Source: Candidatus Moranbacteria bacterium UBA2282
GTDB lineage: Bacteria; Patescibacteriota; Minisyncoccia; Moranbacterales; UBA2206
Direction of reading: 5' to 3'
Assembly: GCA_002345745.1 (NCBI GenBank)
Contig: DDWQ01000019.1
Coordinates: 83-64,082 of the forward strand
Length of the DNA stretch: 64,000 nt
The position numbers and the translations under genes are program-made. Under the pieces are notes generated by a model, which saw only the letters and a program-made list of their open reading frames with translations, had not been told where the DNA came from and made no database searches. Shown here in pieces: positions 63,655-63,925 of the stretch (the first letter of the stretch is position 1; every line of letters starts with the position of its first letter).

Positions 63655-63925
63655 AGCCGTTGTGCGGAATCGAACCGCAGACCTCATCCCTCATTTACAC
63701 CTTCATTTTTTAATTACCAATATGTATTGTGAAGGATTAGACTGTATATTGAGCATATCCATTATAGACTTAGCTCCCCTTGTCAGTCGTTCGGGCGTCC
63801 TATGAACGCCACGGTCTGAACCTCATACAGGCCTTTAACCGTAATTCGGGATTCGTCACTCAGTTTCCTGCGTGATGGGCAATAAATTTACCAAGGATGT
63901 GCTCTACCAACTGAGCTACAACGGC
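63655..63925 (-). tRNA. tRNA-Thr (anticodon GGT) interrupted by a ~198-nt group I-like intron in the anticodon loop
   Basis: 5' exon GCCGTTG-TA-GCTCAGTTGGTAGAGC-A-CATCC-TTGGT.., 3' exon ..GGATG-AGGTC-TGCGG-TTCGATT-CCGCA-CAACGGC-T. The acceptor stem is perfect. The intron ends in G and carries R-like (GGUUCAGACCGUGG) and S-like (AUAUACAGUCUAAUCC) elements plus CACGCAGGAAAC / GAAUCCCGAAU (P/Q-like). Confidence 0.7.

Follow-up and report, generated by a model that had tools for sequence, protein, structure and literature searches.

Intact member of a divergent Patescibacteria group I intron lineage in the tRNA-Thr(GGU) gene of a Candidatus Moranbacteria bacterium

Group I introns between positions 36 and 37 of tRNA-Thr(GGU) have been described in Patescibacteria, where they were present in three of 95 complete genomes, were missed by an RF00028-based protocol and were found with the tFind model gpI_bact_tRNA.cm (Nakagawa et al. 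2026, PMC13011429; for tFind, Williams 2020, bioRxiv 10.1101/2020.01.27.920355). In that study ARAGORN miscalled two of the three Thr introns as Arg(GCG) introns at 34/35, and the Thr introns occupied a long branch in the IA clade, not IC; the naming as “divergent group I introns” is credited there to Castelle et al. 2018. Here we describe an interrupted tRNA-Thr(GGU) gene at 63655–63925 on the minus strand of a 64,000-nucleotide (nt) stretch of contig DDWQ01000019.1 from Candidatus Moranbacteria bacterium UBA2282 (GCA_002345745.1), referred to as the window. With high confidence we take it for a working tRNA-Thr(GGU) gene into which a compact group I intron of this divergent Patescibacteria lineage, itself without an open reading frame (ORF), is inserted. 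Host gene, insertion site, phylum, length class, the RF00028 miss and the ARAGORN miscalls are all shared with the published class, and agreement in gene, site, phylum and RF00028 invisibility makes the window copy a member of the kind already described; nothing essential differs, the one peculiarity being a G38 in the 3′ exon of the window copy and of one metagenome contig (L209). The intron is therefore not new as a kind but an intact additional member of a known lineage, and what goes beyond the published accounts found of the class is its wide spread, its relatives in phage genes and a flanking ORF.

With introns allowed, ARAGORN calls a tRNA-Thr(ggt) on the minus strand whose positions 36 and 37 are separated by an intron of 198 nt, in agreement with an earlier interpretation made from the letters of the window (the sequence-only reading), which had also placed the acceptor stem, D-arm and T-arm correctly. 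The 271-nt pre-tRNA consists of a 5′ exon (63890–63925; tRNA positions 1–36, ending ...CAUCC-UUGGU with U36 as the −1 nucleotide), the ORF-less intron (63692–63889) and a 3′ exon (63655–63691; positions 37–73, beginning A37-G38 in AG-GGAUG...), and the 73-mer obtained by splicing in silico is a canonical cloverleaf in ARAGORN. In default mode the same program missed the gene and reported tRNA-Trp (63234–63305) as the sole tRNA of the whole window. A gapped pattern built from D-arm, anticodon-loop UGGU, variable loop and T-arm matched once in the window and in none of 100 shuffles, and the 271-nt transcript folds at −87.6 kcal/mol, below all 200 shuffles (z = −3.76). The identical pre-tRNA also occurs in an independently assembled contig of 143.6 kb (L292/L293), which is either the source contig or nearly identical to it.

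The gene lies 83 nt upstream of rpmG (ribosomal protein L33), whose nearest homologues belong to Candidatus Moranbacteria; looking up the exact sequence of the window L33 protein gave no match, and homologues were used instead. Other neighbouring proteins likewise have Moranbacteria or Moraniibacteriota relatives. Past the window end, L292/L293 carries intact genes for tRNA-Thr(UGU) and tRNA-Tyr, the former 0.8 kb upstream of the split tRNA. Four related contigs have the order Thr(UGU)-Tyr-Thr(GGU)-rpmG-Trp, and in them tRNA-Thr(GGU) is uninterrupted; this marks an empty site and identifies the window gene as the orthologue with an insertion in the anticodon loop. The window exons agree at up to 65 of 73 positions with the orthologue that lies uninterrupted in a related Moranbacteria contig; where the T-stems differ, the changes are compensatory.

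A group I model (P1 to P9.0) was drawn from the window sequence and tested on a MAFFT alignment of 55 members from the Candidate Phyla Radiation (CPR) made without structural information. The model, including the P3/P7 pseudoknot, leaves 91.8% of cells paired, compared with 30–42% when the partners are slid by one to three columns; both-side changes occur in 36 of 55 pairs, the covariation score is 0.447 (at most 0.104 when slid), and 0 of 500 shuffles reached the observed values. The crossing of P3 and P7 is the defining pseudoknot of group I introns. The proposal of the sequence-only reading that the insert is such an intron is supported by comparative structure, though not by the Rfam check it had suggested.

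All elements of the model lie on the minus strand. P1 (63878–63892) pairs exon G34-G35-U36 and intron A1-A2 with the guide UUGCC (intron 8–12) around the loop L1 (AUUUA). Its pairs are G34-C12, G35-C11, U36.G10, A1-U9 and A2-U8, with the U36.G10 wobble marking the 5′ splice site; across the alignment the U.G and each of the two G-C pairs are present in 55/55 members, and the two intron-side pairs covary. The P2 hairpin (63854–63877; intron 13–36) is capped by a GAAA tetraloop (63864–63867) and shows both-side changes in nine of ten pairs. The 5′ strand of P3, UCCC (63848–63851; intron 39–42), meets its partner GGGG (63776–63779; intron 111–114) in the pseudoknot with P7, and each of its three C-G pairs has rare compensatory changes. 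P4 (63811–63842; ACGGUU/GACCGU, intron 48–53 with 74–79) encloses J4/5 (AAA) and the P5 hairpin (63819–63833); it is 100% paired, five of its six pairs being invariant and the sixth varying on one side only, and P5 has four covarying pairs. The P6 hairpin (63794–63810; GGCGU...ACGCC) is 94% paired, with four of five pairs covarying. J6/7 (CGA), the P7 5′ strand (A, a bulged C, then GACUG) and J7/3 (ACAA) follow as an R-type element (63780–63793). P7, in which A100 and G102–G106 on either side of the bulged C101 pair with C146–U151, is 100% paired with five of six pairs invariant; the bulge adjoins G102-C150, flanked by A100-U151 and A103-U149, an arrangement that on sequence matches a guanosine-binding site. 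P8 (63752–63775) covaries in its outer and inner stems and contains GCUAAG...UAUGC, resembling the 11-nt GAAA-tetraloop receptor. J8/7 (CAAUAUA) and the P7 3′ strand (CAGUCU) form an S-type element (63739–63751), and this J8/7-P7 strand, AAGAUACAGUCUA, is nearly equal to the RF00028 consensus AGAUAUAGUCUA. The remainder (63692–63738) holds J7/9 with the P9.0 5′ strand (AU, 63736–63737), P9 (63700–63735; five covarying pairs) and the 3′ tail UGUAAAUG, with the P9.0 3′ strand at 63693–63694 and the terminal G (G198) at 63692. Both P9.0 pairs (153–154 with 196–197) covary (GC 33/AU 19; CG 30/UA 17). A pairing of the last three intron bases with the L1 loop had also been considered and was dropped, since P9.0 covaries cleanly instead.

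The core is minimal, with a P3 of 3–4 base pairs, no P5abc and no P7.1/P7.2. Two stretches had been singled out in the sequence-only reading as core-like: AUAUACAGUCUAAUCC is indeed J8/7 with the P7 3′ strand, but GGUUCAGACCGUGG is the 3′ strand of P5/P4 with the start of P6 and so Q-like, not R, the true R-type element being CGAACGACUGACAAGGGG (63776–63793). Members with a GAAA L2 loop have a P8 of the GCUAAG...UAUGC receptor-like type and members with a GYAA loop a plain P8 hairpin (counts 27/0/3/25); as the receptor classes were defined post hoc and more loosely than a strict 11-nt regular expression, which has only four matches, and shared phylogeny was not corrected for, this tracking of P8 type by L2 type is suggestive only.

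The window copy keeps every invariant column of the alignment, and in columns conserved at 90% or more it differs only at exon G38 and by a 3-nt insertion in L9. The family profile hidden Markov model (HMM) matches the window exactly once (E = 5.6e-41), and the family covariance model (CM) gives this copy 183.6 bits as a member of the training set and 178 bits to the untrained L209. The insert follows U and ends in G, as had been noted from the sequence, and all 62 members (the window copy and 61 others) have ...UGGU before the intron and a terminal G, after which comes AA-stem, or AG in the window copy. The resulting loop with U32 (63894) and G38 (positions 37–38 are 63691–63690) is a rare combination in a spliced tRNA; among the matches listed, about 150 relatives, the same U32...A37-G38 loop was seen only in L209, an independent metagenome contig whose P10 guide UCCCU is complementary to its 3′ exon AGGGA. 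The same loop with a matching guide marks G38 as a real exon base and puts the 3′ splice site directly after the terminal G. Splicing at 38/39, which would restore a canonical A38, was rejected: it would leave an A as the last base of the 5′ exon, whereas the other 61 members all read U36, intron ending in G, then AA, and the L209 guide pairs with AGGGA.

From this anatomy we infer that the intron is catalytic in its host, along the following route. The pre-tRNA would be transcribed as part of a tRNA-Thr(UGU)/tRNA-Tyr/ORF/tRNA-Thr(GGU)/rpmG/tRNA-Trp cluster, and P1, with its U36.G wobble, would arise from pairing between the guide UUGCC and the anticodon G34-G35-U36. A free guanosine held in P7 (at G102-C150, beside bulged C101) would attack after U36; G198, placed by P9.0 and by P10 between 3′ exon and guide, would then replace it, and exon ligation would give a 73-nt tRNA with the anticodon loop UUGGUAG. 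Docking of the L2 GAAA loop into the receptor-like P8 probably stabilises the fold.

Several points weigh against a functional, self-splicing gene. At position 38 the ligated tRNA would have G, against A in 54/54 aligned relatives, the window copy has a weak P10 (A37-U9, G38.U8), and the guanosine site in P7 is assigned by analogy with P7 of Tetrahymena. RF00028 gave no match at the gathering score on the 64-kb window, nor at E ≤ 10 on 901 nt or 301 nt around the locus. In the published study (PMC13011429) splicing was assayed for Asn/Asp introns at 35/36 only, not for Thr. The sequence-only reading would have given up the intron if a missing group I hit had coincided with evidence that the two halves stay unjoined, such as a separate intact tRNA-Thr(GGT). 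The first half of this came about, although the RF00028 miss is uninformative given that it is a documented false negative for the Thr-intron lineage (PMC13011429). A second, intact tRNA-Thr(GGU) was found neither in the 64-kb window nor in 21 kb of L292/L293, which is the extent of genome that this search covered.

On the subgroup, structure and published placement disagree. Helices P7.1/P7.2 between P7 and the 3′ strand of P3 mark subgroup IA in the Michel-Westhof scheme; here J7/3 is ACAA only (63780–63783), conserved across the family, despite the published placement in IA. Comparison with IC3 introns gave no nhmmer match, and the family CM gave only 18–24 bits to the alphaproteobacterial Thr introns that it reached, with a contribution from shared exons. 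Classical IC3 tRNA introns inserted after U36 (Azoarcus tRNA-Ile, Agrobacterium tRNA-Arg(CCU)) resemble the Thr family in lying 3′ of an anticodon that ends in U, in forming P1 on that anticodon and in being about 200 nt long and ORF-less, but differ in having no detectable sequence relationship to it. The Azoarcus intron has an L2 tetraloop/P8 receptor-type contact comparable to that proposed for the Thr family.

The same site is also occupied in Alphaproteobacteria, where tRNA-Thr(GGU) is interrupted at 36/37 in L047 (2609–2838), L059, L075, L078, L088 and L097. The L047 intron is recognised by RF00028 (57.5 bits), and none of these alphaproteobacterial introns was matched by the HMM of the CPR family; together with CM scores of only 18–24 bits for those reached, this indicates a separate lineage that converged on the same site. 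The family CM does weakly reach Rfam-positive group I introns, scoring 19.3 bits for L047 and 24.7 bits for a tRNA-Tyr intron in L084. The neighbouring tRNA-Tyr(GUA) is itself interrupted in L084 (4677–4950, at 35/36) and in L296 (1635–1919); the L084 intron is canonical and Rfam-positive, so that two intron lineages sit there in adjacent tRNAs.

A tRNA-anchored gapped pattern was scanned over one genome per GTDB species and had at least 120 matches, of which about half of those listed were tandem tRNA arrays. At least 61 GTDB genomes had no intact tRNA at the locus and a single tRNA-Thr(GGU) split by 171–226 nt; among the matches listed, these hosts were mostly Saccharibacteria, Kaiserbacteria, Parcubacteria, Moraniibacteriota and other CPR groups. 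ARAGORN often miscalls family members as Arg(GCG), His or Leu via a shifted boundary. The window intron is 79% identical to its closest aligned relative (L039) and 65–70% identical to most others, with the invariant blocks shared. The 16-mer CGAACGACUGACAAGG, spanning J6/7, P7, J7/3 and the P3 3′ strand, is the family signature and can be used in the form CGAACGACUGACAAGG ... AUACAGUCU. A context-free search of metagenomes with the 16-mer CGAACGACTGACAAGG found, among the matches listed, at least about 90 tRNA-Thr(GGU) copies and a few copies outside tRNAs, and about 20 of the listed matches were chance matches in GC-rich coding DNA. The lineage is thus very widespread, with at least hundreds of copies. 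An intron in tRNA-Thr, which the sequence-only reading had called unusual, is no rarity given the class reported for Patescibacteria, the at least 61 GTDB species and at least about 90 metagenome contigs found here, and the alphaproteobacterial introns at the same site. Nor are 198 nt near the minimum, as it had supposed: the family median is 194–195 nt, with ranges of 171–223 nt in the 55-member alignment and 169–254 nt among 76 metagenome copies. The introns of L072 (5577–5765), L084 (5038–5230), L114 and L048 are only 171–176 nt long, with P9 reduced to a GNRA-capped hairpin, and are shorter than the reported minimum of 184 nt for bacterial tRNA introns (PMC13011429).

Relatives of the intron also occur in phage genes. 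In viral contigs 46 loci match the 16-mer (48 motif matches); 41 of the motif matches have the J8/7-P7 element downstream, and none is in a tRNA. Forty viral copies score 45–138 bits with the tRNA-Thr family CM, and about half also share the P3-P4 sequence; the viral copies tested were missed by Rfam. One contig (L132, identical to L273; IMGVR_UViG_3300020570_000137) has three copies in a single gene (6274–6469, 6746–6935 and about 7576–7726), and excising the first two restores one open reading frame. Its product matches a PHROG major-head family only weakly (E = 8e-4) and Pfam not at all, and the host gene is probably a major-head gene. Introns with the same core were also noted in the phage contigs L251, L261, L272, L280 and others. 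The phage-gene introns share the 16-mer and the J8/7-P7 strand with the tRNA-Thr family but differ in their protein-coding host, the absence of tRNA context and the lack of a flanking LAGLIDADG-type ORF (0/47). A 5′ exon ending in GGU precedes 16 of 31 distinct viral copies, in which a ...GCC guide gives P1 the recognition seen at the GGU anticodon.

On the same strand, directly upstream of the split tRNA, lies a free-standing ORF of 196 codons (P0009) that encodes a helix-turn-helix (HTH) and a LAGLIDADG fold. Its last 28 codons (63916–63999, minus strand; translation EKNKYGVVNIYYHNTKLRNVLVNMLPL, then stop) fall in the window, whose end cuts the ORF, and its stop codon TAG coincides with tRNA positions 8–10; relatives without the intron have only about 25–80 nt in place of the ORF. 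The protein belongs to a family of at least 806 Patescibacteria proteins, unannotated, with an invariant G-L-Y-W-G-E-G block. It has the alpha/beta fold of LAGLIDADG proteins, and its motif helix (residues 70–86) ends in the invariant G-L-Y-W-G-E86-G with a conserved acidic residue. Sequence searches against Pfam and PDB returned weak HTH similarity only, with no LAGLIDADG model or solved LAGLIDADG sequence, and Foldseek returned nothing significant. We regard the product as a putative, and probable, homing endonuclease.

A homologue abuts the tRNA on the same strand in 47 (about 40%) of the 122 tRNA-Thr intron loci for which 750 nt or more lie upstream, and is present anywhere in the locus in 59; it was found in one of 70 loci without a family intron and in 0/47 non-tRNA intron copies, mostly in phage genes, these controls being taxonomically mixed. 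Seven members of the ORF family picked regardless of introns all abut the 5′ end of tRNA-Thr(GGU), in four cases with an intron in the tRNA and in three without, where the published survey had Thr introns in 3/95 complete genomes; this baseline stems from a different data set, and neither comparison is corrected for shared ancestry. P0009 and the intron flank the same 36-nt 5′ exon. In collaborative homing, as known from phage systems, a single site is targeted by both an ORF-less intron and an endonuclease gene that stands apart from it (Hausner et al. 2014, PMC3984707; Zeng, Bonocora & Shub 2009). A free-standing ORF next to the tRNA 5′ end in about 40% of intron loci suggests, by analogy, such an arrangement here, which differs from the phage cases in its bacterial tRNA host gene and HTH-LAGLIDADG protein and is an analogy, not a demonstrated case. 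Together, intron and HTH-LAGLIDADG gene may make up a mobile unit of two parts: the endonuclease would cut naive tRNA-Thr(GGU) alleles, and repair would co-convert the intron; we hold this tentatively, at somewhat less than even odds. Two further genes were noted in such clusters. In L005 a distant homologue of the ORF (509–1174; 27% identity) lies between rpmG and tRNA-Trp, with the tRNA-Thr(GGU) there lacking an intron, and in L299 (Moraniibacteriota) an ORF of the PD-(D/E)XK type (PF11645; 905–1303) between tRNA-Thr(UGU) and tRNA-Tyr is a second free-standing nuclease-like gene in the cluster.

Some LAGLIDADG proteins are maturases, and the abutting ORF could thus also be read as a protein helper that the intron needs in order to splice, instead of or besides acting as an endonuclease. 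The minimal core and the 47 of 122 loci with an abutting ORF speak for such a dependence, yet more than half of the intron loci and all 47 copies of the phage-gene comparison lack the ORF, which indicates that the ribozyme is maintained without it. The invariant E86 is an acidic residue at the motif position expected of a nuclease, and three of the seven sampled ORFs flank tRNAs that have no intron to splice. We therefore consider a required helper unlikely.

A decaying tRNA pseudogene with a relic intron, its ACC/ACU threonine codons being read by another tRNA, is a good deal less probable still. The atypical G38, the tRNA-Thr(UGU) 0.8 kb upstream and the 21-kb view of the genome are compatible with decay, but all helices and every invariant ribozyme position are intact, and the exons keep a perfect cloverleaf with compensatory changes in the T-stem. 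G38 moreover recurs with a matching guide in the independent L209, and the gene occupies the position that tRNA-Thr(GGU) has in the cluster of its relatives. That the insert is no group I intron at all but some unrelated structured RNA, a piece of a mobile element or an artefact of assembly agrees with the lack of an RF00028 match and is effectively refuted by a covarying group I topology with its U.G, terminal G, P9.0 and P3/P7 pseudoknot, by the identical sequence in independently assembled contigs, by at least hundreds of homologues and by the identification of the class as group I in the literature (PMC13011429).

Two observations lie elsewhere in the window. An RNase P RNA of bacterial class A (116 bits; 13176–13591, minus strand) exceeds the model by a 63-nt insertion and further segments, and such additions have been reported for CPR genomes. 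Two adjacent Fic-domain (PF02661) genes (57470–58369 and 58620–59552, both minus strand) lie 4–6 kb downstream of the tRNA cluster.

With a functional tRNA gene interrupted by a group I intron as the favoured explanation, the locus has a practical consequence: neither default tRNA finders nor Rfam see its tRNA, so tRNA-Thr(GGU) would be counted as absent from the genome. The locus also contributes a secondary structure tested by covariation, along with a signature, for a lineage that the standard model misses. Introns of the same lineage in phage structural genes, often with a guide that pairs with GGU, would point to exchange between phages and these bacteria. Collaborative homing, if true, would be the first of its kind for a tRNA gene of a bacterium and would call into question the published conclusion that Patescibacteria tRNA introns without homing endonuclease genes have limited horizontal mobility. 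Should the pairing with the ORF and the phage kinship both be confirmed, they would provide a naturally small ribozyme family (about 170–200 nt) for structural work and have a bearing on the persistence and movement of ORF-less introns in extremely reduced genomes.
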